Shown: positions 10,213 to 38,967 of the stretch, piece after piece | Layout: each line of letters starts with the position of its first letter | Numbering within the stretch: position 1 is the stretch's first letter | Source: Candidatus Woesearchaeota archaeon | Lineage (GTDB): Archaea; Nanobdellota; Nanobdellia; Pacearchaeales; GW2011-AR1 | Length of the DNA stretch: 64,000 bases | Assembly: GCA_964410025.1 (NCBI GenBank) | Contig: CAYPFA010000002.1 | Coordinates: forward strand, 15,653-79,652 | Direction: 5' to 3' | The notes under the pieces: generated by a model | Database searches by the model: none | Told to the model about the DNA's origin: nothing | What the model saw: the letters and a program-made list of their open reading frames with translations, nothing else | Program-made: the position numbers and the translations under genes

Positions 10213-10309
10213 TTTCATAACTGCGAGCGAGCAGCGAGCTTATAATATAAACAAATTTTTCATGAAAAAATTTGACAATTTCCTAAAGACTCTAGTTGCC
10301 TATTATAAA
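10213..10309 (+). repeat. bipartite-hairpin intergenic element, copy 1 (hairpin 1 degenerate)
   Basis: TTTCATAACTGCGAGCGAGCAGCGAGC, then hairpin 2 CAAATTTTT/AAAAATTTG, then ACAATT...CCTATTATAAA. The 3' end overlaps the stop of the minus gene at 10303. Confidence 0.7.
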
Positions 10310-10563
10310 GAACTATCTACCACTGTCCATCCACCCAATTCACTCTTCTCTAATTCTTCAGCTAACTTTAAAGCAAGCCCGTTAGAAGATTCCAATCTCT
10401 TCGGATTATCCAAAGCATCAGGGAAACAATAAGTAATATACCCTGGAAATAAACTTACATAAAAAGTTACATTATATTTATCATCTCTAACAATTAAGCT
10501 ATCGTCTCCAGCAGAAATATTTTTTAAACCAATATTTTTCGCAACTCCGAAAATATCATTCAC
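10303..10563 (-). CDS. hypothetical protein (86 aa)
   Basis: Track ORF with no recognisable motif. Confidence 0.45.
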   Translation of the reverse strand: MNDIFGVAKNIGLKNISAGDDSLIVRDDKYNVTFYVSLFPGYITYCFPDALDNPKRLESSNGLALKLAEELEKSELGGWTVVDSSL

Positions 10564-10616
10564 TCTTCTATTGGTTTCAACAACCCATTGATCATAACTT
10601 ATTTTTCTTATTATTT

Positions 10617-11675
10617 TTAGTCAACTACTACGTCGTGTAAACCATCTGTATCAACTGAGAAAACAGTTTCATTATCTGGCAAGTTTGGTGAATCTATTAA
10701 TTTTGCTACTCTTGTATCCTTCTTACTTCTTCTCAAATACATTCTGTAAGTTGAAGCATGAGCAACAATATTTCCACCAACAGCCTTTGTCGGATCTCCA
10801 AACATTTGAGCCGGGTCAGCCATTACCTGATTTGTAACATAAACAGCCAAATTATAACTTTCTGCAATTTTCATTAAATTATGTAAATATTTATTTAACT
10901 TCTGCTGTCTATCTGCTAACATTCCCCTTCCGGCAAACTCTGCTCTAAAATGCGCAGTTAAAGAATCGATAACAATTAACTTTATTGGCTCGCCATTCTT
11001 AATAAGCTCTGCAATTTTATCCATCAATAAAATCTGATGATCTGAATTAAATGCTCTAGCAACTAAAATATTTTTCAAAACCTTATCGGAATTTGCATTA
11101 TATCTTGCAGCGAACTGTCTAATTCTTTCCGGTCTAAATGTTCCTTCAGTATCGATAAAAACTGCCTTACCATTTAATCCGCCCTGTTCAATTGGCAACT
11201 GAACATTCACTGTCAAAGACAACGCCAACTGAGTCTTCCCTGAACCAAAAGCTCCGAAAGCCTCAGTAATGGACTTTGTCTCTAACCCTTTTCCACCCAG
11301 AAGATTATCTAAATTCTTACTACCTGTAGTAATATTACCTACCTCTTTTCTTTTTTCTGCGAATTCTAAACCATCCGAAAATCCTAAATTCATCATCGAA
11401 CGAGCAGCTTGAATTGCCTTTCTCGCAACAGCCTCTCCCATTCCAGCCATCTCAGCCAATTCAGAAGGACCCATTACGGCCAATCCCATTAAATCATAAA
11501 TTCCGGCAGCTTCAAGTTTCGCAGCAGCACCAGGACCAATACCAGGAACATCTGTTAATTTTTTGCTTTCAACTTCATCTTCAGAATCTTCCTTCTTGGC
11601 TTTCTTGGCTTTCTTATCTTTCTGCTCATCAGAGCTGACACCCGCGTGTGCCTCATCATCTTTTTTCTCAACCAT
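10617..11675 (-). CDS. radA: DNA repair and recombination protein RadA
   Basis: HhH LTDVPGIGPGAAAKLEAAGI; Walker A GAFGSGKTQ; RecA/Rad51 core; K/E/D-rich N-terminal extension. Confidence 0.95.
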   Translation of the reverse strand: MVEKKDDEAHAGVSSDEQKDKKAKKAKKEDSEDEVESKKLTDVPGIGPGAAAKLEAAGIYDLMGLAVMGPSELAEMAGMGEAVARKAIQAARSMMNLGFSDGLEFAEKRKEVGNITTGSKNLDNLLGGKGLETKSITEAFGAFGSGKTQLALSLTVNVQLPIEQGGLNGKAVFIDTEGTFRPERIRQFAARYNANSDKVLKNILVARAFNSDHQILLMDKIAELIKNGEPIKLIVIDSLTAHFRAEFAGRGMLADRQQKLNKYLHNLMKIAESYNLAVYVTNQVMADPAQMFGDPTKAVGGNIVAHASTYRMYLRRSKKDTRVAKLIDSPNLPDNETVFSVDTDGLHDVVVD

Positions 11676-11832
11676 AAAAAAATTATGCCACGTTTTCTTT
11701 ATAAAGATTTATGTGGTTCAAAATCTATTTTACAGCGTCTCTTTTCGTCGAGAAATATGCTACACAAAAGTAATGATAAAATTAAAACAAACCCAAAAGA
11801 GAAATAATCGTGAAATATATTTTATAAAATAG

Positions 11833-11908
11833 TCACTCGCAACTCCGTGCGAACAGCACGGAAGATTAAATAATTGATTTCATGACAAAAGTGAAATCGA
11901 CAAATGCG
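11833..11908 (+). repeat. bipartite-hairpin intergenic element, copy 2
   Basis: TCACTCGCAACTC; hairpin 1 CCGTGC-GAACA-GCACGG (11845-11861); hairpin 2 TTGATTTCA/TGAAATCGA with one T-G pair. Abuts the stop of the minus gene at 11909. Confidence 0.8.
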
Positions 11909-12367
11909 TCAAAAAAAAGCCCAATTAATTATCAACCATACATCCGTCAATAAAACCAAGACAAAAATAATTTGCTCTATCAAACCACCACTTCGAATTC
12001 CAAAAATTCTAATTTTTAAGTCAACCGGCCAAAATAAACTCACTCCCTGAGTAGTAAAACAATCGACTAACAAATGTAAAACATAACCAAAGAAAAATCC
12101 AACTCCAAAATCCTGACTAATAAAAAATAGAAACAAAGACAAAATAAATCCAAACAACAAACTATGCAACACGCCACGATGAGAAACAAACAATTGAAAC
12201 GGCCTAAGATACCAATGATTACCTGCTTTACTCTTTCGAGAATCTATATCAACCAAAAAAGTCGCAATCAAAAAAGCAATTCCAAATATAATTTTATTAC
12301 CTGGCAAATAATTATATAAAAACAAAAAACAAAAAACAGCAATAGTCAAATGAGTCCGCAATAACAT
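11909..12367 (-). CDS. polytopic membrane protein, possibly DUF457/YdjM-like membrane-bound metal-dependent hydrolase
   Basis: Start moved to the internal ATG (MLLRTHLTIAV...), leaving a 1-nt gap to the upstream stop. His-containing TM segments HSLLFG and HLLVDCF. Confidence 0.5.
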   Translation of the reverse strand: MLLRTHLTIAVFCFLFLYNYLPGNKIIFGIAFLIATFLVDIDSRKSKAGNHWYLRPFQLFVSHRGVLHSLLFGFILSLFLFFISQDFGVGFFFGYVLHLLVDCFTTQGVSLFWPVDLKIRIFGIRSGGLIEQIIFVLVLLTDVWLIINWAFF

Positions 12368-12368
12368 C

Positions 12369-13250
12369 TCACTTTCTCTTCTTGTCTCTTTCTTCAAGTT
12401 TTTTAAGCTCGTCCTTTCTATTATAATTCATCAAGTCTTTCTGTATCAATGGAATTTGTCTATCTATATCTCTAATTAAATCTGCAAAATTCTTTATCCT
12501 AATTCTATAATCTGCTTCCGAAAGCTTGCCAGTCTGAAAATAATCTCTCTGCGCATCCTCCATTAATTTTTTTAACGTCACTCTTCTTAAGGTTAAAGAA
12601 TCTAATTTTCCCTTTAATATCCACTCGGTAATTTTCGTACGATAAAACAAATAAAACAATAAAAGAAGAACGAATGCTACAGATAAAGAAATCCAATTTT
12701 CCTTAAAAAAATCCTTTAAATTTTTAGTAGTTGTTTTATAAGCTAAGGCAAGGGCAGTTTGTTCTGATTTTACTGACGTTATTTCAATATATCCTGTATC
12801 CACCAGGGTTGCAACATTCTCATATCTTTCTCCAACAAGTTCTGCATTAATTTGATTAATAATAACATCAATAGAAGACGTATTCATATTCTTATCCACT
12901 GTTTCATTATAGAAGTTTAAAAACACTCTAAAAACATCATAGGCATTAATTGCCGTACTATGCATTTTCTTTATCTGATCACAATAAACTATGACCTGTG
13001 TAAAATCCACCTTACCCTTTCTCGTCTGAATAATCAACTGAGCAGCATAAAGATCCCCTGCTTTTGAATAATAATCATTAAAACGATTGCTAGAAACATT
13101 ATAATTGGTCAAATCAGAAATAATATATGAAGATTCGTTCAAGCAATTTGCAGCGACCTGCTCCTGTGTTAAATTTCCTTCTGCAAATACAAAACTAGCA
13201 CTAAATGCTAAAAATGCAAAAGCTACAAATAGTATATTCAACCACCTCAT
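12369..13250 (-). CDS. secreted, C-terminally membrane-anchored protein with cytoplasmic coiled-coil tail
   Basis: Signal peptide MRWLNILFVAFAFLAFSASFVFA; TM SLSVAFVLLLLFYLFY; K/E/R-rich C-terminus. Confidence 0.6.
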   Translation of the reverse strand: MRWLNILFVAFAFLAFSASFVFAEGNLTQEQVAANCLNESSYIISDLTNYNVSSNRFNDYYSKAGDLYAAQLIIQTRKGKVDFTQVIVYCDQIKKMHSTAINAYDVFRVFLNFYNETVDKNMNTSSIDVIINQINAELVGERYENVATLVDTGYIEITSVKSEQTALALAYKTTTKNLKDFFKENWISLSVAFVLLLLFYLFYRTKITEWILKGKLDSLTLRRVTLKKLMEDAQRDYFQTGKLSEADYRIRIKNFADLIRDIDRQIPLIQKDLMNYNRKDELKKLEERDKKRK

Positions 13251-13287
13251 AGAGATAACAAAATTTCTTAATTTAAATACATTCCTA

Positions 13288-14232: not shown

Positions 14233-14408
14233 AAATTAAATCAACATCTGGCATTTTTAAGTATTGTTATAGTAAAAAGACAATTTGAAGACCTGCAAAA
14301 TTGACAAAAACGTTTCTTTTTGTTTAGAGAAATTTTTCTTTTGAGGCTAAAGGTCATCCCTTGCGGATAAAGAAAAAGAACTCATTGTTGTTTAAAAGTA
14401 TATTAAAT

Positions 14409-14627
14409 TTAAAGAGCTCTATACTTACAAGAAACCATCTTTTCTAAATCTATAACAGTATCATCACCACTATGTCCCGTAGGAATATACCTCATTCCCT
14501 CGCAATGATAAGTTCCCGTCTTCCGTCTTTCCTCACAACTACAAATCGCTCTCTCTCCTCTTCTTCCCGATTCAAACAACGCATATTTACAAACCCTTTT
14601 CAGATCTGATTGCTCCATAATAATCAT
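14409..14627 (-). CDS. small Cys-rich hypothetical protein
   Basis: Track ORF with several Cys/His residues; no family recognised. Confidence 0.35.
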   Translation of the reverse strand: MIIMEQSDLKRVCKYALFESGRRGERAICSCEERRKTGTYHCEGMRYIPTGHSGDDTVIDLEKMVSCKYRAL

Positions 14628-15235: not shown

Positions 15236-15314
15236 ACTACGTAGTCACTCCAAACTCACGCAACGGAGTTGCGTGCATAATCAAAACAATTTGACGAAGT
15301 TAAGTTGACAACTC
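15236..15314 (+). repeat. bipartite-hairpin intergenic element, copy 3 (three-hairpin subtype)
   Basis: Extra palindrome ACTACGTAGT (15236-15245); CCAAACT; hairpin 1 CACGCAAC-GGA-GTTGCGTG (15257-15275); hairpin 2 CAATTT/AAGTTG; GACAACTC. Confidence 0.75.
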
Positions 15315-15389
15315 TGTCAAAACACTGGTCATATGATTAACTAAAAGATAATTCACAACCTTTAAAATCTTCAGATTCTTATTTCATTT

Positions 15390-16094: not shown

Positions 16095-16180
16095 TAAGTT
16101 AACTACTAACTTACATATATCAAAACAAATTTGACAATTTCCAAAAAATTAATCACTCGTCTAAAAATATTCTTATGTTA
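16095..16180 (+). repeat. bipartite-hairpin intergenic element, copy 4 (AT-rich hairpin 1, truncated hairpin 2)
   Basis: TAAGTTA-ACTAC-TAACTTA (16095-16113); CAAAACAAATTTGACAATTTCC...TTATGTTAAAAG. The 3' end overlaps the stop of the minus gene at 16173. Confidence 0.6.
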
Positions 16181-17858: not shown

Positions 17859-17984
17859 TCATTTTTTATCCTGCTCAGAAATATTCATAGAACGAAATCT
17901 TCCACCTCGCTTAAAAGCACGAAGCTGCCTCTTCTTTCTATCATCTTTCTTATTTTTTCTTTTTTCCGGATATCCGTAGTCCAT
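17859..17984 (-). CDS. possible small basic protein (41 aa)
   Basis: AGGAGG (rc of 17991-17996) lies 6 nt before the ATG. Hand-translated MDYGYPEKRKNKKDDRKKRQLRAFKRGGRFRSMNISEQDKK. Too short for the track. Confidence 0.35.
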   Translation of the reverse strand: MDYGYPEKRKNKKDDRKKRQLRAFKRGGRFRSMNISEQDKK

Positions 17985-17993
17985 TTTTTGCCT

Positions 17994-18178
17994 CCTGTTT
18001 TATATTTAATTGCAAAAATTGCTGAATCGAAGTTCTGCCCTTTTGCCTTCTGCCGAGCTGACACCCTTGTGGTGCCTGTTTTATATTTAATTGCAAAAAT
18101 TGCTGAATCGAAGTTCTGCCCTTTTGCCTTCTGCCGAGCTGACACCCTTGTGGTGCCTGTTTTATATTTATTTGCAAA
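17994..18178. repeat. 81-bp tandem direct repeat, about 2.3 copies
   Basis: Copies at 17994-18074 and 18075-18155, partial copy 18156-18178. The unit has a GC-rich core, CTGCCCTTTTGCCTTCTGCCGAGCTGACACCCTTGTGGTG. Confidence 0.95.
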
Positions 18179-20622: not shown

Positions 20623-20740
20623 CTTTATGATACTATATGTAACATTTTGTTACTTTATAAGGTTTTCTCGCAAGAGTTTAAATTGAAATATTCACAAACA
20701 TTATCCCATAAGGTTTAAACAAATAAAAAGGAGTATAGTA

Positions 20741-20836
20741 CCTCACAACTCCGCGTCAATGACGCGGAAGTTAAAATAAACAATTGCGAAGCAATTGACA
20801 ATTCACAATAAAAAAATGCGTATCCTGTTATATACA
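20741..20836 (+). repeat. bipartite-hairpin intergenic element, copy 5
   Basis: CCTCACAACT; hairpin 1 CCGCGTC-AAT-GACGCGG (20751-20767); hairpin 2 CAATTGC-GAA-GCAATTG (20781-20797); ACAATTC...CCTGTTATATA. Confidence 0.8.
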
Positions 20837-21040
20837 TCGACAAATCACCTAAACAAACCAATCTTTCTATTATGAAATTAACAATTTCTTAAAATCAGTA
20901 TATAATCAGAGAATTTAATGCCCGAGAGCCCCAGTTTTACCCAGAGCAAAGCTTCTCGAGCGGTACATAATTATGCAACAAATTCACCCTATTTAAAGCT
21001 AATTATTTGACAGAAAGCCAAATAACAAAAAAACAAGATA

Positions 21041-21151
21041 CTCACAACTCCGTGCGGGCAGCACGGAAATAATCAAATTGATTTCGCTGCAAAAAATCGC
21101 AAAAGTGAAATCAATAATTTGCCAAAAACAACGCTCTCTTCCTATTATAAA
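21041..21151 (+). repeat. bipartite-hairpin intergenic element, copy 6
   Basis: CTCACAACT; hairpin 1 CCGTGC-GGGCA-GCACGG (21050-21066); hairpin 2 TTGATTTC/GAAATCAA (21078-21114); TCTTCCTATTATAAAA. The stop of the minus gene is at 21158. Confidence 0.85.
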
Positions 21152-21157
21152 AACCAC

Positions 21158-24846: not shown

Positions 24847-24930
24847 AAATTAATTTACCCTTCGTAGAAACAACCATCAAATGCTTTTAATAAAAATTTA
24901 ATTCTAATCAAAAGAATTGAAGAGCGTTTA

Positions 24931-25029
24931 TTCACAACTCTGTGCGAGCAGCACGGAAATAATCAAAACAAATTTTTCACAAAAAATTTGACAATTAACT
25001 TAAAAAAATACTCGTATTCTTGTTAAAAC
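24931..25029 (+). repeat. bipartite-hairpin intergenic element, copy 7
   Basis: TTCACAACT; hairpin 1 CTGTGC-GAGCA-GCACGG (24940-24956, one T-G pair); hairpin 2 CAAATTTTT/AAAAATTTG (24969-24990); ACAATT...CTTGTTAAAA. The minus gene stop is at 25031. Confidence 0.85.
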
Positions 25030-25030
25030 C

Positions 25031-25522
25031 TTATTCTCCAGGCACAACGCCGCCCTTTGTTAAAACCACAGAAACAATTGCAGCAACTACGATAAGCGCA
25101 ACCATTCCAAACCAAGACTGATCAAACCAAGATTGCACAACATCCCAACTCAGTGCCCAATTAAAAACATAACTTGATGAGAATATAAATACAATAACCA
25201 AAATAGCAAGAATAATCCATGCCACTGCCTTATTTTCAGAAACTATTTTTATAGCATCTTTTCCAGTAAACGCCAAAACTGTCATAATTAAAAATAAACA
25301 TATAAAAAAAACAGCAAACCAAGAAACATTTATTCTAACAAAATCCACAAGTCTAACGTTAACAATAAAAAAAGTAGCGATAATAAATGATAAAAACAAG
25401 GATACTAGATTATTATCTCCTAACAATTTAGTTTTCTGTAATAAAGCATAAATTAAGATAAATACAAATAAAAAAGAAATTATAGGCATAACTGTCAAAA
25501 AAGGAGAAAGAGAAATCACCAT
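25031..25522 (-). CDS. membrane protein, LQKTK-motif paralog A
   Basis: N-terminal TM ending ...FILIYALLQKTKLLGD; about 5 TM segments. Confidence 0.65.
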   Translation of the reverse strand: MVISLSPFLTVMPIISFLFVFILIYALLQKTKLLGDNNLVSLFLSFIIATFFIVNVRLVDFVRINVSWFAVFFICLFLIMTVLAFTGKDAIKIVSENKAVAWIILAILVIVFIFSSSYVFNWALSWDVVQSWFDQSWFGMVALIVVAAIVSVVLTKGGVVPGE

Positions 25523-26086: not shown

Positions 26087-26344
26087 ATGCAAATACTAAA
26101 AACAAAAAAATCTTTTAAAAAGGAATTTAGACGACAAATTCGTCTTGCGATCACAGCGGGAATTGGATTTACCATTGCCTACGCATGGAGAGAATCCATA
26201 TTCAACACATTTGAAAATTTTATTTCTAGATTTTTTGATTTAACCAAAGGCCATTATGATACTCAAATATATACTGCTCTAACAATAACCATCTTCGGAG
26301 TAGCTCTAATATTTCTAACATCTAAAATCCTAAAAGAAAACTAA
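26087..26344 (+). CDS. small two-TM membrane protein
   Basis: MQILKTKKSFKKEFRRQIRLAITAGIGFTIAYAWRESI.... ATG 26087 preferred over the track TTG start. Confidence 0.5.
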   Translation: MQILKTKKSFKKEFRRQIRLAITAGIGFTIAYAWRESIFNTFENFISRFFDLTKGHYDTQIYTALTITIFGVALIFLTSKILKEN

Positions 26345-26415
26345 TTTTAAAGTATAATCTATAAAATAATAACAAACAATTTCTGACATACATAATAAAA
26401 TAAAAAACATTCACC

Positions 26416-26557
26416 AATCACAACTCCTCGTCACAAAGTTCGTGACTCCCAACTCACGCAACGAAGTTGCGTATATAATATAATTGATTTTTCGAAAACA
26501 AAATTCAAAAGAAAAATCAACAATTCTCAACAAAAAACTCTTCCTCCTAGTATAAAA
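26416..26557 (+). repeat. bipartite-hairpin intergenic element, copy 8 (three-hairpin subtype)
   Basis: AATCACAACTCC; extra hairpin GTCAC/GTGAC (26430-26446); CCCAACT; hairpin 1 ACGCAAC-GAA-GTTGCGT (26456-26472); hairpin 2 TTGATTTTT/AAAAATCAA (26484-26520); CAATTCTCAACAAAAAACTCTTCCTCCTAGTATAAAA. Confidence 0.85.
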
Positions 26558-28086: not shown

Positions 28087-28169
28087 AATAAAGGAAAAAT
28101 AAACGATTTCCTAAAAATCTCGGCCACCTACCCCAAAACTCTTTAAACTAATTCAAGCTTTTCTATTTT

Positions 28170-29767: not shown

Positions 29768-29880
29768 TCACTCACAACCCCGTGCGAGTAGCACGGAAAT
29801 AATCAAATTGATTTCACAGAACAAAAGTCAAAAGTGAAATCAACAACTTCCAACAAAAAAACTTTCCTCCTGGTATAAAT
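29768..29880 (+). repeat. bipartite-hairpin intergenic element, copy 9
   Basis: TCACTCACAACC; hairpin 1 CCGTGC-GAGTA-GCACGG (29780-29796); hairpin 2 TTGATTTCAC/GTGAAATCAA (29808-29843); CAACTTCCAACAAAAAAACTTTCCTCCTGGTATAAAT. Confidence 0.9.
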
Positions 29881-29908
29881 AAAAAAAATAAAAATAAAAT
29901 TTGTTTTA

Positions 29909-30139
29909 TTACTTTTTCTTAACAACAACTGTATTCCCCTCTTTTCTAAAGGATAAAATTACAGCAACTATCGCCAAAAAAATCACAGCAATTTGCTGGC
30001 CAACACTTCCTAAAATTAACAAAGAATATTCTCCTGCCAATAAAAATAGGTTTGGAATAACAGCTATAGTTTCAAGGACAACGAGAATCAAAGCAATCAC
30101 ACTCAGCCACTTTGCCCATTTAATCGCACTCATATACAC
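29909..30139 (-). CDS. small membrane protein (76 aa)
   Basis: Two to three hydrophobic segments. Preferred over the overlapping plus-strand ORF 29901-30176. Confidence 0.45.
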   Translation of the reverse strand: MYMSAIKWAKWLSVIALILVVLETIAVIPNLFLLAGEYSLLILGSVGQQIAVIFLAIVAVILSFRKEGNTVVVKKK

Positions 30140-30253
30140 ACCTCCATTAAAACTACCAAATTATTATTCTTTTTAAATTCTCTCAATCTATCTTATTCAA
30201 AGCATATATTCAACCACAACGTTCTTTATAAAAGATTTAATCAACGAAAGAAC

Positions 30254-31303
30254 ATGGCTACGGACGTTATTACTGGAGGACAGGGCGGTGATGAGGGTAA
30301 GGGAAAAATATGCGCATACCTCGCCAAAGAAAAAAAATATTCTATATGTATTCGAGTTCCTTCGCCTCAGGCTGGCCATTCAATTCATTACAACGGAAAA
30401 AGAATAGGTCTCGCGCTACTTTCATGCGGAGTAGTTAATCCTTCTTCGAGAATCTTCATCGGCGCAGGCGGACTAATATCACTTGAAAAATTAGCATCTG
30501 AACTCTCACAACTACCAGGATTACTAGAAGATGCAAGACTCGGAATCGACTACCGTGCAACAATCGTAACCCCAGAGCACAAAGAAAAAGAAAAATCCAA
30601 CGAATATTTAATGAAAAATGTGGGAAGCGTAGGAACGGGAGTAAGCCAGTGTAGAATAGAAAAAATACTAAGAGATCCAAATTTAAAATTTGCAAGAGAC
30701 ATCCCAGAACTAAAGCCATTCTTAGTAGATACAAAAAAAGAAATTTTTGAAGCGCTAGAAAGAGGAGAACATATATTATTGGAAGGAGATCATGGAGCAA
30801 AATTAGATTTAATTCACGGCGAATATCCCATGGTAACCACAAGAGCTGTTAATGCTGCCGGATTTTTATCCGAAGCGGGAATTGGTCCGAAATCAGTCGG
30901 AGATATATACATTGTTCTAAAACCATACACTACTAGAGTCGCTGCAGGTCCAATGCAAGGAGAAATTTTTGATGAAAAAATTTTAGAGTGGGGACATAAT
31001 GTTGGCGGAGAAACTGGAACAGTAAGTAAAAGACTAAGAAGAATGAGCAATTTTGAATGGGAAAATGTTCAAGAAGTAATACGAATGAACTCTGCAACAA
31101 AACTCGTCTTCACTCACATGGATGCACCCGAGTACGTTTGGAATGCACTTGGATACAAAGGCGATATGGATTTCCTCGCAAACGTAGATAAAAAATTATG
31201 CCAAAAATGGCCCTTTCCACAAATATCACTTCTATCATATGGTCCAGAAGAAAAACACGTAATTACTTATACTGAATATCTAGACGGATTTCTAAAAAAA
31301 TAA
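30254..31303 (+). CDS. purA: adenylosuccinate synthetase (short archaeal form)
   Basis: GGQGGDEGKGKI P-loop signature; 349 aa. Confidence 0.8.
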   Translation: MATDVITGGQGGDEGKGKICAYLAKEKKYSICIRVPSPQAGHSIHYNGKRIGLALLSCGVVNPSSRIFIGAGGLISLEKLASELSQLPGLLEDARLGIDYRATIVTPEHKEKEKSNEYLMKNVGSVGTGVSQCRIEKILRDPNLKFARDIPELKPFLVDTKKEIFEALERGEHILLEGDHGAKLDLIHGEYPMVTTRAVNAAGFLSEAGIGPKSVGDIYIVLKPYTTRVAAGPMQGEIFDEKILEWGHNVGGETGTVSKRLRRMSNFEWENVQEVIRMNSATKLVFTHMDAPEYVWNALGYKGDMDFLANVDKKLCQKWPFPQISLLSYGPEEKHVITYTEYLDGFLKK

Positions 31304-31304
31304 A

Positions 31305-32663
31305 ATGACAAAAAAAGTTGTTATAGTTGGCGCAGGACCTGCAGGATTATTTGCAGCTAAACAATTGGCAGGCAAATTAGATGTAGTTATTTATGACAAA
31401 GGCAAAGAAGCTGACCAAAGATCTTGTCCAAAAAACACCAACAAAAGAGGCGAATGTGTTCATTGTAAACCCTGTCAAGTAACGCATGGAATTGGTGGAG
31501 CTGGACTCACAACTGATGGAAAATTAATGTATGACATTAGAATTGGAGATAATTTAAATGAAATCACCACTCCAGTAAAAAATCAACAAGTAATGGATAT
31601 TGTAGAAATGGGTTTCGCTGAATATGGAGTTAAAACTGCCGTAGGAGATTTGGAAAAAATAGAACGTTTACAAAAAAAAGCATTACAAAACCGAGTAGAC
31701 TTTATCTACCCCAGACAAGCACATATTGGCTCAAATAATTTACCCACATTAATTCAAAAATTTAAACAAGATCTAGAAATTAAGGGAGTTGAATTCAGAA
31801 CATCTACAGAAATTAATGCACTTGAAGAAATTTGCAAGAATGGCGACATTGTATTGCTTGCACCCGGGAGAGTCGGAGGGGGAGAAGATTGGTTAGAAAA
31901 TATTCTAAGAAAAAAAGGTGTTCAAATTGACTATCGCCCTGTAGACATTGGAACACGAATAGAAACTGATAGCATTGTTACAAAAGATATTACTGATATA
32001 ACCAGAGATATGAAATTTTATATGACCACTGATAAATATCAAACAAGGGTAAGAACTTTCTGCACTTGCCCGAATGGATTTGTAGCACAAGAAACCTATA
32101 ATGGATTTGTAACAGTAAATGGACACGCCGAATCTCTAGAAACTGGAAAACAATCTCAAAACACAAACTTTTCACTCTTAGTTACAGTACCATTAACTCA
32201 ACCACAATCCAACTCCAATGAAAATGCTAGAAAACTCGGAGAATACATTTATAATTTGGGCGGAGGAAAAATAATCGCACAAAGATATGGAGACTTAAAA
32301 AGAAACAGAAGAAGCAAGGAAGACAAACAATCTCAATATTTTCTTCAACCAACACTTAAAGATTTTACCTGGGGAAGTTTGTATTTTTTACCAGAAATTT
32401 ACCATTCCGGAATTCATGAAGGAATACAAAGACTCGACGGAATTATGCCCGGACTTGCCAATGATTCAACCATTCTCTATGTTCCAGAAATAAAATTCCA
32501 CGGATTAAAAATTCCCACAAATGATCACCTTAGAGTAATTAGTAAAGACAATCATCCTGTTTATGTTGCGGGAGACGGCTCTGGTTTTTCAAGAGGAATT
32601 GTTGGTGCCGCAGCCTGTGGAGTTTTAGCTGCCGAAGGCATAATGCAAGAATTGAATTTGTAA
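31305..32663 (+). CDS. FAD-dependent oxidoreductase (COG2509-like uncharacterised dehydrogenase)
   Basis: VVIVGAGPAGLFAA dinucleotide-binding motif; C-terminal AGDGSGFSRGI. Confidence 0.7.
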   Translation: MTKKVVIVGAGPAGLFAAKQLAGKLDVVIYDKGKEADQRSCPKNTNKRGECVHCKPCQVTHGIGGAGLTTDGKLMYDIRIGDNLNEITTPVKNQQVMDIVEMGFAEYGVKTAVGDLEKIERLQKKALQNRVDFIYPRQAHIGSNNLPTLIQKFKQDLEIKGVEFRTSTEINALEEICKNGDIVLLAPGRVGGGEDWLENILRKKGVQIDYRPVDIGTRIETDSIVTKDITDITRDMKFYMTTDKYQTRVRTFCTCPNGFVAQETYNGFVTVNGHAESLETGKQSQNTNFSLLVTVPLTQPQSNSNENARKLGEYIYNLGGGKIIAQRYGDLKRNRRSKEDKQSQYFLQPTLKDFTWGSLYFLPEIYHSGIHEGIQRLDGIMPGLANDSTILYVPEIKFHGLKIPTNDHLRVISKDNHPVYVAGDGSGFSRGIVGAAACGVLAAEGIMQELNL

Positions 32664-32756
32664 AAATAAAACAACAAATAAACAATTTCTAATAAAAAAA
32701 CCTTCATCCTATAATCTCCAAAAGCAAAAATATTTATCTTAAACAAAGTTCATCAT

Positions 32757-32860
32757 CACTCACAACTCGAGTGCGAAGCACTCGTATAACATAATTGATT
32801 TTTCGAAAACAAAATTCAAAAGAAAAATCAATAATTCTCTAAAAACTCCGGTCGCCCAAT
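32757..32860 (+). repeat. bipartite-hairpin intergenic element, copy 10
   Basis: TCACTCACAACT; hairpin 1 CGAGTGC-GAA-GCACTCG (32768-32784); hairpin 2 TTGATTTTT/AAAAATCAA (32795-32831) with the same loop as copy 8; ends in ATATTTAAAAA about 32 nt before ATG 32891. Confidence 0.9.
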
Positions 32861-32890
32861 ATTTAAAAACATCTATCCCCTAGACATTTT

Positions 32891-34768: not shown

Positions 34769-34832
34769 TCTTAGAAAACGAAAAAGTCTTTTTTATACCT
34801 TATGTTTTATAAAACATTTACAAATTAAAAAA

Positions 34833-35582: not shown

Positions 35583-36240
35583 TTAAAACCATTCTCCACG
35601 CATTTCCTTCTCCATTTATTTTAAACTTCGGCAAATCTAATTTTTTATTAAACAATGGACAATTAACAACCAAACTTTCAAACTCTCCGCCCTCTCCAGC
35701 CGGATGTATTTTATACTTTTCATTTAATTTTTTAAGCTCTTCAATAAATTTTAAATCTATCTTTCTTCCAATCCAAGATTTGTCCAAAGGATACGCAGCA
35801 ACACTAACAATAATGGCTTCAAATTTATTTTCAATCAACTCCTCTAATAAACTAAACTGCTTTTTCTGCCAAAGTGGATTAACACATTTTATTTTTAACT
35901 CATCACAAATTTTTTGAATTCTATCTGCCTGATACACGCTCCCCACGGCTCCAGTAATTATTCCTTCAATTTTATATTTCTTAACAGCCTCCCTAATAAT
36001 TCTTTTTAAATCAACAAGCTCTATTTCTTTTTCTCCTTTTGTTGTTCCTAGAACCATAGGCAAACCCATAAGCTCTGCTTGCCTTTTAGTCAATTCAATC
36101 GCAGGAGTATGAAACATATAACTGTCTTCATTTTCACTAAAAACAGAAATCAAACAAACTAATTCATTCCCTTTTTGTTTTTCCAAATATGCAGCATAGG
36201 TAGAATCCTTACCGCCAGAAAATAAAACTCCCAATTTCAT
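35575..36240 (-). CDS. dph6: diphthine-ammonia ligase (Dph6/MJ0570-like PP-loop ATPase)
   Basis: MKLGVLFSGGKDSTYA PP-loop; 221 aa. Confidence 0.8.
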   Translation of the reverse strand: MKLGVLFSGGKDSTYAAYLEKQKGNELVCLISVFSENEDSYMFHTPAIELTKRQAELMGLPMVLGTTKGEKEIELVDLKRIIREAVKKYKIEGIITGAVGSVYQADRIQKICDELKIKCVNPLWQKKQFSLLEELIENKFEAIIVSVAAYPLDKSWIGRKIDLKFIEELKKLNEKYKIHPAGEGGEFESLVVNCPLFNKKLDLPKFKINGEGNAWRMVLNE

Positions 36241-36290
36241 AATATAAATAATAAAATCAAGTTTAAAAATATCGCTTTCCTATTAATTTT

Positions 36291-37205
36291 ATGCCAGCAA
36301 ACGCTTCCCCTGAATTTTCACACGCTGAAAAGAAATTTGATATAGCTAAAAACGATGATGAAAAAATTCTCGCACTTGAGGAAATGATCAAAACCATGCC
36401 TCAACATAAATCTGCCGAATCTCTACGTTCAAATCTAAGAACTCGTTATAAAAAACTTAAAGAAAAAATGGAGACCAAGGGCAAGAAGTCTGGTGGTGGG
36501 GCAAAACCAACAATCAGAAAAGAAGAAATCCAGGCAGTAATTTGTGGATTTCCAAACACAGGAAAATCCTATTTATTCAAAAGCCTAACCGGGCAAAATA
36601 CCTTCATTTCAGATATCGCCTTCTCCACTTATCAACCGACTCCTGCAATGATGAACTTCGAAAACACTCAAACTCAAATAATAGATATGCCTCCATTTCC
36701 CAACGAAGATAAAAGTTTAATTAATAATGCAGACACTTTATTAATAACAATAAATGAACTTCCGCAAATTCAAGAATCGGAAAAATATTTACAGAGAAGC
36801 CTAGCTAAAAAAATTTATATCTTCACAAAAATAGACCTATTAAGTGAAGTAGAAAAAAGAAGACTAGATGCAAATCTAAAATCAAAATACAAAAACATAG
36901 ATTATGTATTATTCTCCAATGTTAATCATACGGGTGAAGAGCTTAAACATCTGAAACAAAAAATATTCGCAACATTCCCAGTTATTAGAGTGTTTACCAA
37001 AGAACCAAAAAAAGAATCGGGTGGAATACCTATGATAATGGAAATAGGTTCAACAACCTCCGATGTTGCAGAAAAAATATTAAAAGGCATGTCAAAAAAA
37101 CTTAAAAAAACAAAAATTTGGGGACCTTCTTCAAAATTTCCAGGTCAACTAGTAGGCAAAGACCACGTTTTAAAAGACAAAGACACTGTTGAGTTTCAGA
37201 CATAA
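36291..37205 (+). CDS. DRG/Obg-family GTP-binding protein with C-terminal TGS domain
   Basis: G1 motif GFPNTGKS; C-terminal TGS-like GQLVGKDHVLKDKDTVEF. Confidence 0.7.
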   Translation: MPANASPEFSHAEKKFDIAKNDDEKILALEEMIKTMPQHKSAESLRSNLRTRYKKLKEKMETKGKKSGGGAKPTIRKEEIQAVICGFPNTGKSYLFKSLTGQNTFISDIAFSTYQPTPAMMNFENTQTQIIDMPPFPNEDKSLINNADTLLITINELPQIQESEKYLQRSLAKKIYIFTKIDLLSEVEKRRLDANLKSKYKNIDYVLFSNVNHTGEELKHLKQKIFATFPVIRVFTKEPKKESGGIPMIMEIGSTTSDVAEKILKGMSKKLKKTKIWGPSSKFPGQLVGKDHVLKDKDTVEFQT

Positions 37206-37483
37206 TGAAAAAAGAACAACTCTTTCTAATTCTCTCATTCATCGGCATAATCATTCTTCTACTTCTTCTAAATTTCCAAAAACCAATTCTAACAGGAAAA
37301 ATTTCCTCAATAAAAATAGAAAATGATGCAACAAAAATTTACCTGGAAAACAAGCCAGAAATAATTTATATCTCAAATAAAACAAAACTAAACTTACAAA
37401 TAAACGATCAAATAAAAGCCTACGGTAAATCTTCCAAATTTCAAAACAAAACCTTTATTTTTGCAGACAAAATTACAAAATGA
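37205..37483 (+). CDS. small N-terminally anchored protein (92 aa)
   Basis: One N-terminal TM segment. ATG overlaps the previous stop. Confidence 0.5.
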   Translation: MKKEQLFLILSFIGIIILLLLLNFQKPILTGKISSIKIENDATKIYLENKPEIIYISNKTKLNLQINDQIKAYGKSSKFQNKTFIFADKITK

Positions 37484-37540
37484 AATATAAATTAGCAAAT
37501 TCAAATAAAAAATACTATATCAAAATAAGGATGCATAAGT

Positions 37541-37616
37541 GCACTCACAACTCCATGCCAAGCACGGAAGTTAAAAGAAACAAATTGAGAAGCAATTTGA
37601 CAATTCTCTTAAACTA
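37541..37616 (+). repeat. bipartite-hairpin intergenic element, copy 11
   Basis: GCACTCACAACT; hairpin 1 CCATGC-CAA-GCACGG (37553-37567, one mismatch); hairpin 2 CAAATTG-AGAAG-CAATTTG (37581-37599); ACAATTCTCTTAAACT about 25 nt before ATG 37638. Confidence 0.8.
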
Positions 37617-37637
37617 CTGGTTGCCACTTGCAAAAAG

Positions 37638-38822
37638 ATGCTAACCATTATCCTCGCCATCACACTCGGAATCATCTTGGGAATAATTACAGGTTTAATT
37701 CCCGGACTTCACACAAACCTAATTTCCGCATTGACAATTACAATACTTCCATTCCTTTTACTTTATTTTTCACCATTCTCACTTGCAATCTTTATAGTCT
37801 CACTTTCTATAACAAACCTATTTATTGAATTTATTCCTTCAACCTATTTAGGCGCACCAGATGAAGACACGGCACTTTCAGTTTTACCAGGACATGAACT
37901 CCTATTAAAAGGAAAAGCCCATTTCGCAATTTTCCTCTCATCACTCGGAAGTCTAATTGGATTATTTATGGCAATTATTTTAGCACCTCTTTTATTTATT
38001 TCACTCAACACAATTTACCCATTTTTCGAAACAATGATGCCCTGGCTTTTAGTTTGGATTTGCATTCTTCTTCTATTGGACTCAAAACAACTCGCCCTTT
38101 CTCTAATTATTTTTATTCTTTCTGGGTTTTTAGGAATTGCCTCTCTAAACCTAACAATTAACCAACCACTTCTTCCACTCCTAACCGGGTTATTTGGAAT
38201 TTCTAGTATAATTTATTCCATCTCTCAAAAAACAAATATTCCTAATCAAGACACAACCCTTGATTTTATCGATAAAAAAACTTTCACAAAACCAATTCTA
38301 ATCAGCGCACTAATTTCCCCCATCTGCTCTTTTCTTCCCGGACTCGGAAGTTCCCAAGCAACCATAATTGGATCAAAAATTTCAAACCTAAAAAGAGAAC
38401 AATTTCTAATTTTAAATAGTACAATAAGTCCTATTCTAATGTCCTTGTCTTTTGTGACAGTTTTTCTAATAAATAAATCAAGAACAGGTTCAGCAAGCGC
38501 CATTTCAGAAATGATTCAACTTTCAAAAAATCAAATCTGGATTATCCTTGCACTTACAATAATCGTCGGACTTATTGTATTTTTTATCACACTTAAAATT
38601 TCAAAATCCATTGCAAATAAAATTCAAAACATAAATTATGAAAAGCTTTCATGGACCATTCTAATTTTCCTAATAATTATGACGGCAGTTATCTCTGGAC
38701 ACCTGGGGCTTTTAGTTTTAATAATATCTACATTTCTCGGACTTTCCTGCCAATATTACGGAATAAGAAAAGGTTTACTGATGGGTTGCTTGTTAATTCC
38801 GACTATTATTATATATTTATAA
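37638..38822 (+). CDS. TctA/DUF112-family polytopic membrane protein
   Basis: GLIPGLH and LPGLGSSQATI motifs; about 10 TM segments. Confidence 0.55.
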   Translation: MLTIILAITLGIILGIITGLIPGLHTNLISALTITILPFLLLYFSPFSLAIFIVSLSITNLFIEFIPSTYLGAPDEDTALSVLPGHELLLKGKAHFAIFLSSLGSLIGLFMAIILAPLLFISLNTIYPFFETMMPWLLVWICILLLLDSKQLALSLIIFILSGFLGIASLNLTINQPLLPLLTGLFGISSIIYSISQKTNIPNQDTTLDFIDKKTFTKPILISALISPICSFLPGLGSSQATIIGSKISNLKREQFLILNSTISPILMSLSFVTVFLINKSRTGSASAISEMIQLSKNQIWIILALTIIVGLIVFFITLKISKSIANKIQNINYEKLSWTILIFLIIMTAVISGHLGLLVLIISTFLGLSCQYYGIRKGLLMGCLLIPTIIIYL

Positions 38823-38867
38823 AAAATCATTCTAAATTTTTAATAGACTTATCTGTCAGATTTGAGA

Positions 38868-38967
38868 CACTCATAACTCCGTGCGAGCAGCACGGAAATA
38901 ATCAAAACAAATTTTTCATCAGAAAAATTTGACAATTCCCAACAAAAAACATTTCTTCCTGTTATAT
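38868..38967 (+). repeat. bipartite-hairpin intergenic element, copy 12
   Basis: CACTCATAACT; hairpin 1 CCGTGC-GAGCA-GCACGG (38879-38895); hairpin 2 CAAATTTTT/AAAAATTTG (38908-38931); ACAATTCCCAACAAAAAACATTTCTTCCTGTTATAT. The dnaE stop is at 38974. Confidence 0.9.

Follow-up and report, generated by a model that had tools for sequence, protein, structure and literature searches.

A plus-strand two-hairpin repeat at the gene junctions of a Pacearchaeota chromosome

Introduction

What is a unit of ∼100 bases, folded as two hairpins, doing at nearly every gene junction of a 30 kb stretch of an archaeal chromosome? The window analysed here, 64,000 nucleotides in full, belongs to the chromosome of an uncultivated Pacearchaeota (DPANN) archaeon and adjoins a probable cdc6–PolD origin. 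A preliminary description listed 12 such sites and proposed four roles for them: terminator/promoter punctuation, antisense or 3'-UTR RNAs, a replication-polar signal or a non-autonomous mobile element.

Results

Copies and orientation

The described layout is present at all 12 sites (Table 1) and runs from a G-free box and GC-rich hairpin through a G-free linker and an AT-rich hairpin to an A/C-rich tail with a TATA-like end. Run without filters on both strands of the window, a covariance model trained on 11 copies returns these 11 as strong matches (60–100 bits, E 1e-9 to 1e-17). A single degenerate copy and one or more solo fragments complete the family, which lies entirely on the plus strand, between 10.2 and 39.0 kb. 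The model gives no minus-strand match in the window and nothing convincing in 1–10 kb or 39–64 kb. The reported co-orientation is thus borne out (12/12), and it holds across tandem-minus, tandem-plus and convergent contexts, independent of gene direction. The 5' box CACTCACAACTC (≤2 mismatches) occurs 19 times, always on the plus strand, against an expectation of 3.7 ± 1.9 (0/100 shuffles reach 19). Searches of Rfam and public databases turned up no match to the repeat.

Left of the origin, copies occupy 11 of the 12 non-divergent intergenic regions longer than 100 nt and none of the five divergent (promoter–promoter) regions. The ORF 26087–26344 (+) is a real DUF5654 gene, which places the copy at 26416 in a convergent junction and thereby sets the contexts of the 12 sites at four tandem-minus, four tandem-plus, four convergent and no divergent.

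Table 1. Repeat copies, solo fragment and probable origin (scores from the covariance model; H1 and H2, hairpins 1 and 2)
Feature	Position	Strand	Evidence	Box and hairpins	Tail and setting
c10213	10211–10302	+	76.9 bits	degenerate box TTTCATAACTG; H1 GCGAGC/GCGAGC with tandem G.A; H2 CAAATTTTT/AAAAATTTG	variant 2, terminal TATTATAAAG; right end 4 nt from stop of minus gene 10303–10563
c11833	11833–11908	+	78.4 bits	box TCACTCGCAACTC; H1 CCGTGC/GCACGG; H2 TTGATTTCA/TGAAATCGA, one T.G pair	truncated to an A8 run, abutting stop of YdjM-like minus gene
c15236	15245–15340	+	60.5 bits; fold	H1 CACGCAAC-GGA-GTTGCGTG; H2 CAATTTGAC-GAA-GTTAAGTTG, two G.T pairs	variant 2; flanked by aEF-1beta (+) and HIT/CwfJ-like (+) genes
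c16095, degenerate	16095–16164	+	sequence; just 14.4 bits	no box; H1 TAAGTTA/TAACTTA; H2 collapsed to CAAATTTG, then ACAATTTCCAAAAAA	convergent junction
c20741	20739–20836	+	77.1 bits	H1 CCGCGTC-AAT-GACGCGG; H2 CAATTGC-GAA-GCAATTG	variant 1 (GTTATATAC); same intergenic region as c21041; abuts no gene
c21041	21038–21152	+	100.2 bits	H1 CCGTGC/GCACGG; long-loop H2 TTGATTTCGC...GTGAAATCAA, one G.T pair	...CTCTTCCTATTATAAAA; end 5 nt from stop of T2SSE-like ATPase gene (−)
c24931	24928–25028	+	95.2 bits	H1 CTGTGC/GCACGG, one T.G pair; H2 CAAATTTTT/AAAAATTTG	convergent junction; adjoins stop of minus gene 25031–25522
c26416	26414–26557	+	82 bits for 26443–26555	tandem extra 5' unit 26414–26447 (box CAATCACAACTC, hairpin GTCAC...GTGAC) ahead of full element; H1 ACGCAAC-GAA-GTTGCGT; H2 TTGATTTTTC...GAAAAATCAA	TTCCTCCTAGTATAAAA; between DUF5654 gene (+) and minus gene stop
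c29768	29768–29880	+	99.8 bits; promoter geometry	H1 CCGTGC/GCACGG; H2 TTGATTTCAC...GTGAAATCAA	TTCCTCCTGGTATAAAT, giving a TATA box about 22–30 nt ahead of ORF 29901 (+)
Solo 3' tail	32674–32717	+	repeat family D9; weak match 32619–32717, 23.6 bits, E 0.039		ACAAATAAACAATTTCTAATAAAAAAACCTTCATCCTATAATC; 40 nt upstream of c32757
c32757	32756–32868	+	83.9 bits	H1 CGAGTGC-GAA-GCACTCG; H2 that of c26416	variant 2, terminal ATATTTAAAA, at promoter position for ERCC4 nuclease gene 32891 (+)
c37541	37541–37637	+	67.2 bits	H1 CCATGC/GCACGG, one A.C mismatch; H2 CAAATTG/CAATTTG	variant 2; CTTAAAC at promoter position for TctA (37638, +)
c38868	38867–38968	+	96.2 bits	box CACTCATAACTC; H1 CCGTGC/GCACGG; H2 CAAATTTTTC/GAAAAATTTG	end 5 nt from stop of PolIII-alpha-like gene (−)
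Probable origin	48444–48934		beside cdc6 (47223–48443, −)		ORB-like repeats 48513–48539, 48606–48650 and, inverted, 48774–48804, around AT-rich stretch 48660–48720

Mosaic structure

Copy-to-copy identity by region is only 43–74%, and the unpaired segments are almost G-free (2–6% G). The 3' consensus first proposed, ...CAACAAAAAAC-TTCCTCCTrGTATAAA, describes about six copies only; four others (10213, 15236, 32757 and 37541) carry tail variant 2 (ACAATTyCyTAAAnACTCyGGTyGCC...) and the tail of 11833 is 3'-truncated. Nine of the 12 tails contain an A5–A8 run, read as a run of T on the minus strand. The copies are put together as mosaics from exchangeable modules, and tandem, nested and decayed pieces occur among them. 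One hairpin 1 (CCGTGC) is combined with three hairpin-2 types, while c26416 and c32757 share an identical hairpin 2 and differ in their hairpin 1 stems and tails. The two tail variants, the tandem 5' unit of c26416, the solo tail, the collapsed copy at 16095 and the pair c20741/c21041 within one intergenic region are further signs.

Hairpins and folded strand

All of the stem sequences quoted in the preliminary description are found in the copies, and the two hairpins have both persisted while their sequences changed. Stem cells are paired in 92.3% of cases, compared with 75.8 ± 2.0% in shuffles (0/500 reach the observed value) and only 27–41% in slid controls, and eight of the 13 stem pairs have changed on both sides (reached by 1/500 shuffles). 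The earlier observation that the stems vary while pairing is kept therefore stands. Its reading as selection on structure is less secure, since templated correction of quasi-palindromes would yield complementary stems, and hence the same pattern, without selection.

On the plus strand the copies fold cleanly: the two-hairpin fold is the minimum-free-energy structure in 11/11 copies, where it accounts for 0.11–0.76 of the ensemble. Plus-strand z-scores are −4.3 to −7.4 for eight copies, −2.7 for one and −1.0 and −1.5 for the two weakest, and are stronger than those of the minus strand in 10/11 copies. On the plus strand the non-Watson–Crick stem pairs comprise five G.T, one internal A.C and one tandem G.A. 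Several imperfections had earlier been described as T-G pairs, which RNA helices tolerate; the excess of G.T over A.C is suggestive of plus-strand folding, but is not significant. The plus strand would be the likelier one to fold, as RNA or single-stranded DNA.

Comparison with relatives

No copy is present in relatives at 72–80% nucleotide identity, and two covariance models and nhmmer give no match across related Pacearchaeota loci totalling about 100 kb. Orthologous junctions there are compact, with overlapping genes or spacers of 18–48 nt. The YdjM–RadA spacer (c11833) is 48 nt in L011, L012 and L014 versus 233 nt here, and the convergent spacer of c24931 is 18 nt in L011 versus 184 nt here. 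In the gene map of the closest relative the DUF5654/163-aa junction (c26416) measures 23 nt and the helicase/ERCC4 junction 37 nt. The L011 region downstream of the T2SSE gene, homologous to the c20741/c21041 region, lacks a copy. The 92-aa/TctA pair (c37541) overlaps or abuts with no spacer in L020, L021, L025 and L026 (overlapping in L020 and L026, versus 154 nt here), and TctA/PolIII-alpha (c38868) overlap at their stops in L020 and L026 versus 151 nt here. Because these junctions are compact, the copies are lineage-specific insertions into formerly compact junctions. The contigs of this species from other samples all match at 100% identity, so presence/absence polymorphism, the direct sign of mobility, could not show.

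Origin and strand asymmetry

The candidate origin near 48.5 kb is plausible: cdc6 lies here together with ORB-like repeats and an AT-rich unwinding region, and the third-codon-position GC skew shifts abruptly. Pfam matches identify cdc6, DP1 and DP2 nearby, and the relative L025 has the same origin architecture. Left of the origin the plus-strand skew is about −0.35 for plus genes and −0.54 for minus genes. Every copy lies on this side. The reported absence beyond the origin holds in that 39–64 kb contains no convincing match, but it does not support a polarity reading: most of the region right of the origin is a mobile island (53–65 kb, with an integrase, a recombinase, Fic, a phage-like DNA transfer protein and many orphan genes), which makes the absence uninformative. 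The only eligible core intergenic region to the right contains a tRNA. A single replichore is in view, with about 30 kb of eligible sequence.

Discussion

Among the four proposed roles a non-autonomous repeat is favoured, because the copies are lineage-specific insertions, are mosaic and are in some cases decayed or tandem; terminator/promoter function would be secondary. With about even confidence, the 12 sites represent a lineage-specific, non-coding, non-autonomous mosaic repeat, REP/BIME- or MITE-like, that has spread into compact junctions. Bacterial REP/BIME elements and MITEs lacking terminal inverted repeats are its analogues, although at 43–74% identity the family is old compared with an active MITE. 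No transposase is found in the window, and neither terminal inverted repeats nor a clear target-site duplication was detected at the inspected copy junctions. Each insertion also carries a unique, non-repeated left spacer of 24–107 nt, so no discrete mobile unit is delimited. No promoter recurs at a consistent position upstream of the box across copies, so a plus-strand sRNA gene is unsupported.

Copies may have inserted, or survived, in one orientation only relative to the strong strand asymmetry of the chromosome. The simplest cause would be a mechanism that works on hairpins formed by one DNA strand, for example single-strand transposition coupled to replication, its enzyme being encoded in another part of the genome. 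Across archaea, the insertion-sequence family with the widest distribution is IS200/IS605, which transposes as a single strand into the lagging-strand template (PMC13343696, PMC6006769). Its ends are alike, whereas the two hairpins of the present repeat are unlike each other.

The tail most likely doubles as an oligo-T terminator for minus genes and a TATA box for plus genes. Of the eight copies previously placed near minus-strand stops, seven lie within 0–13 nt; the exception is c20741. The tail reverse complement, TTTATAC-AGGAGGAAAG-TTTTTTTG, would put a T6–7 archaeal terminator right after these stop codons and resembles a native L011 junction, TTTATAAAAGGAAGAGGGTTTTTTTGAATATG upstream of RadA. 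Promoters of the host genome have a TTTATAAA box beginning about 32–33 nt before the ATG, and the suggested TATA-box placement of the 3' TATAAA matches this geometry for the plus genes 29901, 32891 and 37638. At that distance, operons split by insertion could still be expressed. That the tail works both ways may explain why copies were tolerated at first and later retained.

A point against the proposed explanation concerns strand geometry: with an origin at 48.5 kb, lagging-strand synthesis would expose the minus strand, but the wobble pairs point to folding of the plus strand.

Composition of the repeat family

The elements are a real, well structured and lineage-specific repeat family. Their 12-nt 5' box occurs 19 times with up to two mismatches, always on the plus strand, against 3.7 occurrences expected, and the module order reported in the preliminary description (box, GC-rich hairpin 1, A-rich linker, AT-rich hairpin 2 and A/C-rich tail) is found at all 12 listed sites. 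An unfiltered covariance-model search of both strands of the window recovers 11 copies at 60–100 bits, together with weaker matches at 32619–32717 (23.6 bits) and to the degenerate copy c16095 (14.4 bits); a second model containing only the box and hairpin 1 leaves this picture unchanged. Neither model, run unfiltered on both strands of the window, detects a minus-strand copy, in agreement with the co-orientation originally claimed, and no copies are found at 1–10 kb or 39–64 kb. The single 3' consensus first assigned to the layout does not hold: the tail comes in two variants, and one copy is truncated and another collapsed. In addition, c26416 carries a tandem 5' unit, and a solo tail occurs.

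The modules occur in varied combinations. The hairpin 1 stem CCGTGC is combined with three types of hairpin 2, each tail variant is found with several hairpin types, and c26416 and c32757 have a 93% identical hairpin 2 segment in common while differing in hairpin 1 and tail. Tandem, nested, truncated and collapsed pieces are all present. Taken together, the freely recombining modules and the broken pieces resemble a BIME-type repeat family undergoing turnover.

Two candidate decayed pieces were noted by eye and are not picked up by the covariance models or nhmmer: CAATTT...AAATTG, which resembles hairpin 2 and precedes ACAAAAAC, and a sequence resembling tail variant 2, GATTTCCTAAAAATCTCGGCCACC. 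A AAACCTTT-hairpin motif at 58.4 kb was considered and rejected, as it does not form a family within the window.

Hairpin structure and folded strand

Hairpin 1 is GC-rich, with a stem of 6–8 bp and a loop of 3–5 nt, and hairpin 2 is AT-rich, with a stem of 7–10 bp and a loop of 3–18 nt; their sequences are unrelated. When the copies are aligned to the model, pairing is seen in 92.3% of the stem cells, compared with 75.8 ± 2.0% in shuffles and 27–41% with slid partners, and both sides have changed in eight of the 13 stem pairs. Hairpin 2 falls into two main classes, so that part of this pairing signal arises from the existence of subfamilies, and hairpin 1 has at least six different stems, each individually complementary. 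The proposal that structure is kept under selection is thus borne out as far as pairing despite sequence change is concerned, but not as regards selection alone, since subfamilies and templated correction fit as well; the complementary stems could stem from templated correction of quasi-palindromes instead of selection.

On the plus strand, the minimum-free-energy fold consists of two independent local hairpins in all 11 of the copies folded and is well defined, with z-scores of −4.3 to −7.4 in eight of them. The minus-strand fold is less specific, with a weaker z-score than the plus strand in 10 of the 11 copies and a minimum-free-energy structure that accounts for only 0.01–0.12 of the ensemble, a difference that is due in part to the G-poor composition of the plus strand. 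The stem imperfections on the plus strand are five G·T pairs and one internal A·C, in line with the T–G pairs already described. The unpaired segments contain 2–6% G and are the best conserved parts of the elements (pairwise identity is 0.74 in the box, 0.70 in the linker and 0.43–0.46 in the loops). Several hairpin loops are of the C-GAA-G or G-NNN-A type, which are unusually stable in single-stranded DNA (GCGAAGC). The G·T excess, the cleaner fold, the G-poor conserved unpaired parts and the loop types together favour the plus strand as the one that would fold, as RNA or as single-stranded DNA alike.

Conserved unpaired segments with co-varying stems are typical of functional RNAs, and the elements might accordingly be read as small structured RNA genes, transcribed either from the minus strand, starting at the promoter-like tail (TTTATAC-N18-T7) and crossing both hairpins to reach a T-run beyond the box, or from the plus strand, as antisense or 3'-UTR RNAs. 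Read in reverse complement, the tail looks like a promoter of this genome and, in approximately nine copies, keeps a constant spacing from hairpin 2; a minus-strand T5–T7 run is found 8–20 nt beyond the box in six of the 12, and the plus-strand motifs CCUCC and UCACUC resemble anti-Shine–Dalgarno sequences. However, five stem positions become C·A mismatches on the minus strand, where the fold is poorly defined, the tail TATA is missing from three copies, and TATA-like matches upstream of the box on the plus strand stand at inconsistent distances. Rfam 15 yields only tRNA at the gathering threshold and no match to the elements up to E = 5, and 12 paralogues within 29 kb with none in relatives would be extraordinary. 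RNA genes are considered unlikely. Coding potential was rejected: short minus-strand ORFs lie behind an AGGAGG motif, and neither their frame nor their length is conserved because the loop lengths differ. Six-frame translations of the copies, used as protein queries for spurious ORFs over other copies, gave no match.

Comparison with related genomes

Five other samples contain contigs of this species, all of them 100% identical to the window and therefore uninformative on strain polymorphism of the copies. The nearest other genomes have 72–80% DNA identity, with the TctA protein at 81 and 77%. In the loci of these relatives, two covariance models and nhmmer identified no element copy and no significant diverged homologue, and every junction open to comparison is compact (see table). 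The surviving ancestral spacer sequence lies to the left of the insertion. The compact junctions and the lack of copies in relatives indicate that the copies are gains in the lineage of the window. In this streamlined DPANN genome, whose relatives have overlapping genes, one repeat family has enlarged nearly all eligible junctions over 30 kb.

Junctions and other features of the window and of related loci (L010, L011, L020, L025 and L026 are loci of related Pacearchaeota genomes)
Feature	Window	Strand	Relatives	Remark
92-aa gene/TctA junction	154 nt		overlapping ATGA	
TctA/PolIII alpha junction	151 nt		overlapping stop codons	
YdjM/RadA junction	233 nt		48 nt	
Convergent pair near 25 kb	184 nt		18 nt	
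DUF5654/163-aa gene junction	226 nt		23 nt (gene map only)	
Helicase/ERCC4 junction	two copies flanking three-gene block		37 nt (gene map only)	
Three-gene block	29901–32663			flanked by c29768 and c32757
Tandem 5' unit of c26416	26414–26447			
Solo tail	32674–32717			
Candidate decayed piece, hairpin-2-like	14279–14312			
Candidate decayed piece, tail-variant-2-like	28104–28128			
Two-tier hairpin	~20905–20965	minus (window)	L010 3395–3450; L011 5305–5362	bracketed by c20741 and c21041
Direct repeats around hairpin segment			L010 7288–7472	one intergenic region
cdc6	47223–48443	minus		
Probable replication origin	48444–48934			
ORB-like repeats of the origin	48513–48804		L025 18194–18490	
PolIII alpha gene	38974–42102	minus	in L020 and L026, not in L025	
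tRNA-Ser (CGA) region	49735–50036			
Partial tRNA-Ser copy	49849–49904			68% identity
Partial tRNA-Ser copy	49981–50036			91% identity
Tyrosine recombinase gene	60719–61552			
Tandem duplication	17994–18155			
Small ORF overlapping the duplication	17885–18145	minus		
Giant surface-type protein gene, 5' part	1–9276	minus		runs off window

The three-gene block, which contains a 91-aa ORF, an adenylosuccinate synthetase-like gene and a gene for an FAD-dependent protein, has the helicase and ERCC4-nuclease genes on its two sides and is absent between them in the gene map of the closest relative. A fragment upstream of RadA in L010 that appeared similar by eye has no support from the covariance models or nhmmer, and no analogous repeat family was found in the more distant relative L025. 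One intergenic region of L010 holds two near-identical 40-nt direct repeats around a hairpin-containing segment of about 59 nt, which is a separate small repeat or duplication event in the clade.

A degenerate 27-nt pattern of the commonest subfamily gave only chance matches, in Planctomycetes and Verrucomicrobia, among genome and metagenome contigs. Two pattern scans of viral contigs returned nothing or a chance match without the hairpin, and blastn against phages and plasmids produced no match to the elements. A literature search found no account of such repeats for Pacearchaeota or DPANN archaea.

Gene context and transcription signals

Four copies lie between tandem minus-strand genes, four between tandem plus-strand genes and four between convergent genes, while none of the five divergent regions is occupied; all 12 copies follow the end of one gene or more. 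Of the 12 non-divergent spacers longer than 100 nt at 9.3–48.4 kb, 11 hold a copy. The right end of the element lies 0–13 nt from the stop codon of a minus-strand gene in seven copies, one fewer than first counted although the abutting itself is confirmed, or approximately 22–30 nt before the start of a plus-strand gene in three; c20741 abuts no gene. The left side consists of unique spacer (24–107 nt), and a search for transduced flanks found no repeats among the left spacers.

The promoters of this genome carry a TTTATAAA box that begins approximately 32–33 nt before the ATG, implying leaderless mRNAs; in archaeal promoters the TATA box stands about 26 nt ahead of the transcription start. 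The suggestion that the tail can serve as a TATA box agrees with c29768, c32757 and c37541, in which the TATA-like box stands at this usual distance before the ATG codons at 29901, 32891 and 37638, respectively, and is predicted to act as a promoter. In c15236 a separate TATA box downstream of the element is predicted to serve the next gene. On the minus strand the tail reads TTTATAC-AGGAGGAAAG-TTTTTTTG, with a T6–7 run directly past the stop codon, and is closely similar to a native stop-to-start junction in a relative. A putative oligo-T terminator (T5–T8 on the minus strand, within about 45 nt of the stop) is found in six of the seven copies that abut minus-strand stops. The genes between the copies, which include RadA, aEF-1beta, a purA-like gene, a helicase and TctA, are encoded on both strands, and several of them are preceded by TATA boxes of their own.

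This placement, always downstream of a gene and never in a divergent promoter region, with the right end close to minus-strand stops or at a set distance before plus-strand starts, could reflect a punctuation cassette evolved by the host. Such a cassette would be neither selfish nor mobile but a bidirectional terminator and promoter, or an insulator, copied by recombination or gene conversion and kept by selection. Minus-strand T-runs in nine of the 12 tails, a plus-strand T5 inside hairpin 2 in six copies, boxes and linkers that are better conserved than the loops and a mosaic make-up consistent with gene conversion point the same way. A cassette of this kind should, however, flip with gene direction, whereas here the same end faces minus-strand stops and plus-strand starts, and it offers no role for the conserved box or the GC hairpin. 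The copy that abuts no gene, the decayed, truncated and tandem pieces, which suggest turnover rather than maintained signals, and the close relatives that do without elements, their genes overlapping, also make this explanation improbable.

A conserved two-tier hairpin of approximately 45–60 nt is present upstream of the 57-aa/724-aa genes in three genomes, with the apical loop GUAAAAC, AGUAAAAU or AUAAAAC. Both sides have changed in four of its 16 pairs and it has no Rfam match; it is a candidate conserved noncoding RNA.

Replication origin and polarity

Among the proteins encoded in the window are RadA, both PolD subunits, Orc1/Cdc6, aEF-1beta and a PolIII alpha of bacterial type, and the closest named homologues are from Candidatus Pacearchaeota. 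The order cdc6-DP1-DP2, beside a 491-nt AT-rich spacer with three repeats resembling origin recognition boxes (ORBs) around an AT-rich core, is repeated in L025. In both genomes two of the ORB-like repeats are direct and one is inverted, with the G-string AGGGGTGAG(T/A)G, and the architecture is conserved. The region at 48.4–48.9 kb is a probable replication origin. To the left of cdc6 (1–48443), the plus-strand GC skew at third codon positions is approximately −0.35 for plus-strand genes and −0.54 for minus-strand genes; to the right (48935–64000), it is approximately 0 and −0.3, weaker and without reversal of sign. Leading strands are usually G-rich, and with the probable origin at this position forks would accordingly cross the element-bearing region in a leftward direction. 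The 12 copies all share one orientation and one replichore, and the strand inferred to fold, the plus strand, would be the leading-strand template.

The reported absence of elements beyond the origin is correct for 49–64 kb but says little as a signal of polarity, because the syntenic core on that side spans only 48.9–53.4 kb and contains one eligible spacer, that of tRNA-Ser with two partial tRNA copies. These are 3'-half copies that look like leftover attachment sites of integrations into the tRNA gene. The region at approximately 53.4–65 kb, which extends partly past the window, contains a tyrosine recombinase gene, many orphan genes and a gene whose 476-aa product matches phrog_1745, a phage 'DNA transfer protein' family (E = 4.5 × 10−100), with a serine recombinase and Fic just past the window. 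Strand skew is weaker at approximately 53.4–64 kb than in the core, and this stretch and its continuation are probably an integrated mobile element.

Co-orientation of all copies to the left of a cdc6-adjacent origin would also suit replication-polar DNA sites, in which the box and hairpin 1 act as a pseudo-ORB or other strand-specific signal to which Orc1/Cdc6 or a protein of the replisome binds, or as a single-strand signal for priming or pausing, oriented by fork direction. In reverse complement the box reads GAGTTGTGAGTGA, which agrees at 11 of 13 positions with GAGGTGTGAGGGA, the G-string of the origin repeat ORB-b, and follows a dyad (hairpin 1) in an ORB-like manner; it has the same polarity as the two ORBs that share its side of the unwinding region, and the stability of the loop types in single-stranded DNA is compatible with such a signal. 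The box match is nevertheless post hoc and ranks only as the fourth best non-element match in the window, and the box also resembles Shine–Dalgarno-like GGAGTGA motifs. The dyad is unrelated to that of the ORBs and varies between copies, which is unexpected for a protein-binding site, the copies are purely intergenic whereas KOPS and Chi are found inside genes too, and the relatives have the origin but no elements. Sites of this kind are very unlikely to be the explanation.

Relationship to known repeat systems

By analogy, the elements behave most like REP/BIME repeats or a single-strand element of the IS200/IS605 type. Bacteria are well known to carry structured intergenic repeats of REP/BIME type at high density, whereas such repeats are barely documented in archaea. 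Similarly to these, the elements are short extragenic hairpin repeats, dense between tandem and convergent genes and preferentially downstream of genes, with a conserved single-stranded motif beside a stem of varying but complementary sequence; they are mosaics of a few hairpin and linker types, with a possible secondary role as terminators or mRNA-end structures. They cannot be classed as REPs because a REP is an imperfect palindrome of 20–40 nt with GT[AG]G at its 5' foot and commonly occurs in inverted pairs, whereas GTAG and GTGG are absent from both strands of the elements (the hairpin flanks are ...CACAACTC and AAATAATCAAA) and all copies have one orientation, with no inverted pairs. Each unit also has two dissimilar hairpins and a promoter-like tail. 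REP/BIME repeats (REPINs) are bacterial and are mobilized by RAYT/TnpA-REP Y1 HUH enzymes, the cognate RAYT gene lying between REPs in the same genome, whereas the host here is archaeal; a 2018 survey found REP-associated transposases (RAYT) to be confined to Bacteria, with only IS200-type Y1 enzymes in Archaea (PMC6006769). No Y1 transposase domain or RAYT was detected in the approximately 40 proteins scanned of the ~60 encoded in the window.

IS200/IS605 is the most widespread insertion-sequence family in archaea (PMC13343696). As in its PATEs and MITEs, the elements lack terminal inverted repeats, the 5' end (CACTCAC...) being unrelated to the reverse complement of the 3' end (TTTATAC...), and target duplication is not evident, with none clear at four junctions compared with the empty sites in relatives; this sets them apart from classical MITEs, which have terminal inverted repeats and target-site duplications of fixed length. 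A hairpin lies near each end, a conserved segment of approximately 12 nt separates one hairpin from the boundary, and the single orientation would be as expected of replication-coupled single-strand transposition. Assignment to IS200/IS605 ends is contradicted by the hairpins, since those of IS200/IS605 resemble each other (same TnpA) whereas those of the elements are unlike and vary between copies. The active strand of IS200/IS605 is on the lagging-strand template, whereas the wobble evidence here would point to the other strand. Neither tnpA nor tnpB was detected among the approximately 40 window proteins scanned, and no conserved target tetranucleotide is definable. An autonomous partner (tnpA, with or without tnpB) would have the ends of the elements, and the pattern scans of genome and metagenome contigs turned up chance matches only.

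The preferred reading, in which moderate confidence is placed, is that of a lineage-specific non-autonomous mosaic repeat with strand-specific insertion or retention and a dual-use terminator/promoter tail. Its weak points are that no transposase was detected among the proteins scanned, that there are no defined ends and no observed polymorphism, that the two hairpins are dissimilar and that identity between copies is only moderate. A bolder and rather doubtful extension is that the elements are products of a hitherto undescribed strand-specific, replication-coupled system of single-stranded DNA propagation in DPANN archaea, an archaeal counterpart of REP/RAYT in which hairpins are read by their shape and G-free flanks and which the host has co-opted to rebuild transcription units. 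The box, resembling the ORB G-string, might tie such a system to the replication machinery. Of note are the strict polarity and the occurrence in a DPANN archaeon, yet intergenic hairpin repeats are common in prokaryotes. If the polarity is genome-wide, the elements would naturally mark the direction of replication and would be evidence of single-strand-based DNA mobility in DPANN archaea, and the dual-use tail would represent a selfish insertion that brings the terminator and promoter signals required for splitting an operon without killing the host. If it is not, they would be an ordinary lineage-specific repeat family.

Integron attC sites are likewise recognized by their folded structure in a strand-specific manner, are co-oriented and occur once per gene pair, and structure-specific recombination sites, attC-like or Xer-like, might shuffle gene blocks between junctions. 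The conservation of structure over sequence, the co-oriented positions between genes, the three-gene block that the closest relative lacks and that two direct copies flank here, and the tyrosine recombinase gene would fit. The elements are not attC sites, because attC is a single long bulged hairpin (R''/L'' and L'/R' boxes, RYYYAAC/GTTRRRY cores) in arrays beside intI, whereas they form two separate local hairpins without pairing core sites and without intI. Pairing of the attC type between the box (...CACAAC) and the tail (...GTTATAT) is seen only in c38868. Integron cassettes are mostly promoterless, whereas the intervening genes here are housekeeping genes on both strands that have promoters of their own. 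The copies that flank the three-gene block differ in every module, and the recombinase resembles Xer in its size and domains, its gene lying 22 kb away in the probable mobile island. Recombination sites are thus extremely improbable. Inspection by eye also led to rejection of attC, K-turn/K-loop, C/D box, H/ACA and bulge–helix–bulge motifs as the identity of the elements.

The pneumococcal BOX element (boxA-boxB-boxC) is a modular Gram-positive intergenic repeat with variable modules and a stable predicted structure. It shares with the elements a modular and variable composition, and BOX affects the expression of neighbouring genes; it differs in being bacterial, in having no strict orientation rule and in its unrelated sequence. 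Double-hairpin elements were reportedly described in fungal mitochondria by Paquin and coworkers in 2000. Mitochondrial hairpin repeats resemble the elements as one- or two-hairpin units in the intergenic regions of compact genomes that are lineage-specific and form several subfamilies. They differ in being organellar rather than archaeal and have no sequence relationship to the elements; neither co-orientation nor a promoter/terminator tail is known for them. Repetitive hairpin-forming elements also occur in sponge mitochondria (PMC2800124), in an account in which the word 'orientation' does not occur.

Other features of the window

The PolIII alpha gene, which encodes PHP, alpha, finger and HhH domains, adjoins the archaeal PolD DP2/DP1 genes and cdc6 (42163–47173), an arrangement already known from Pacearchaeota (PMC8204110). 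A perfect tandem duplication (2 × 81 nt, 100% identical) overlaps a small minus-strand ORF. The left end of the window contains the 5' part (>3,092 aa) of a gene for a giant, repeat-rich protein of surface type, in which the coding repeats measure 81 and 87 nt; in another sample its product is recorded as at least 3,841 aa.
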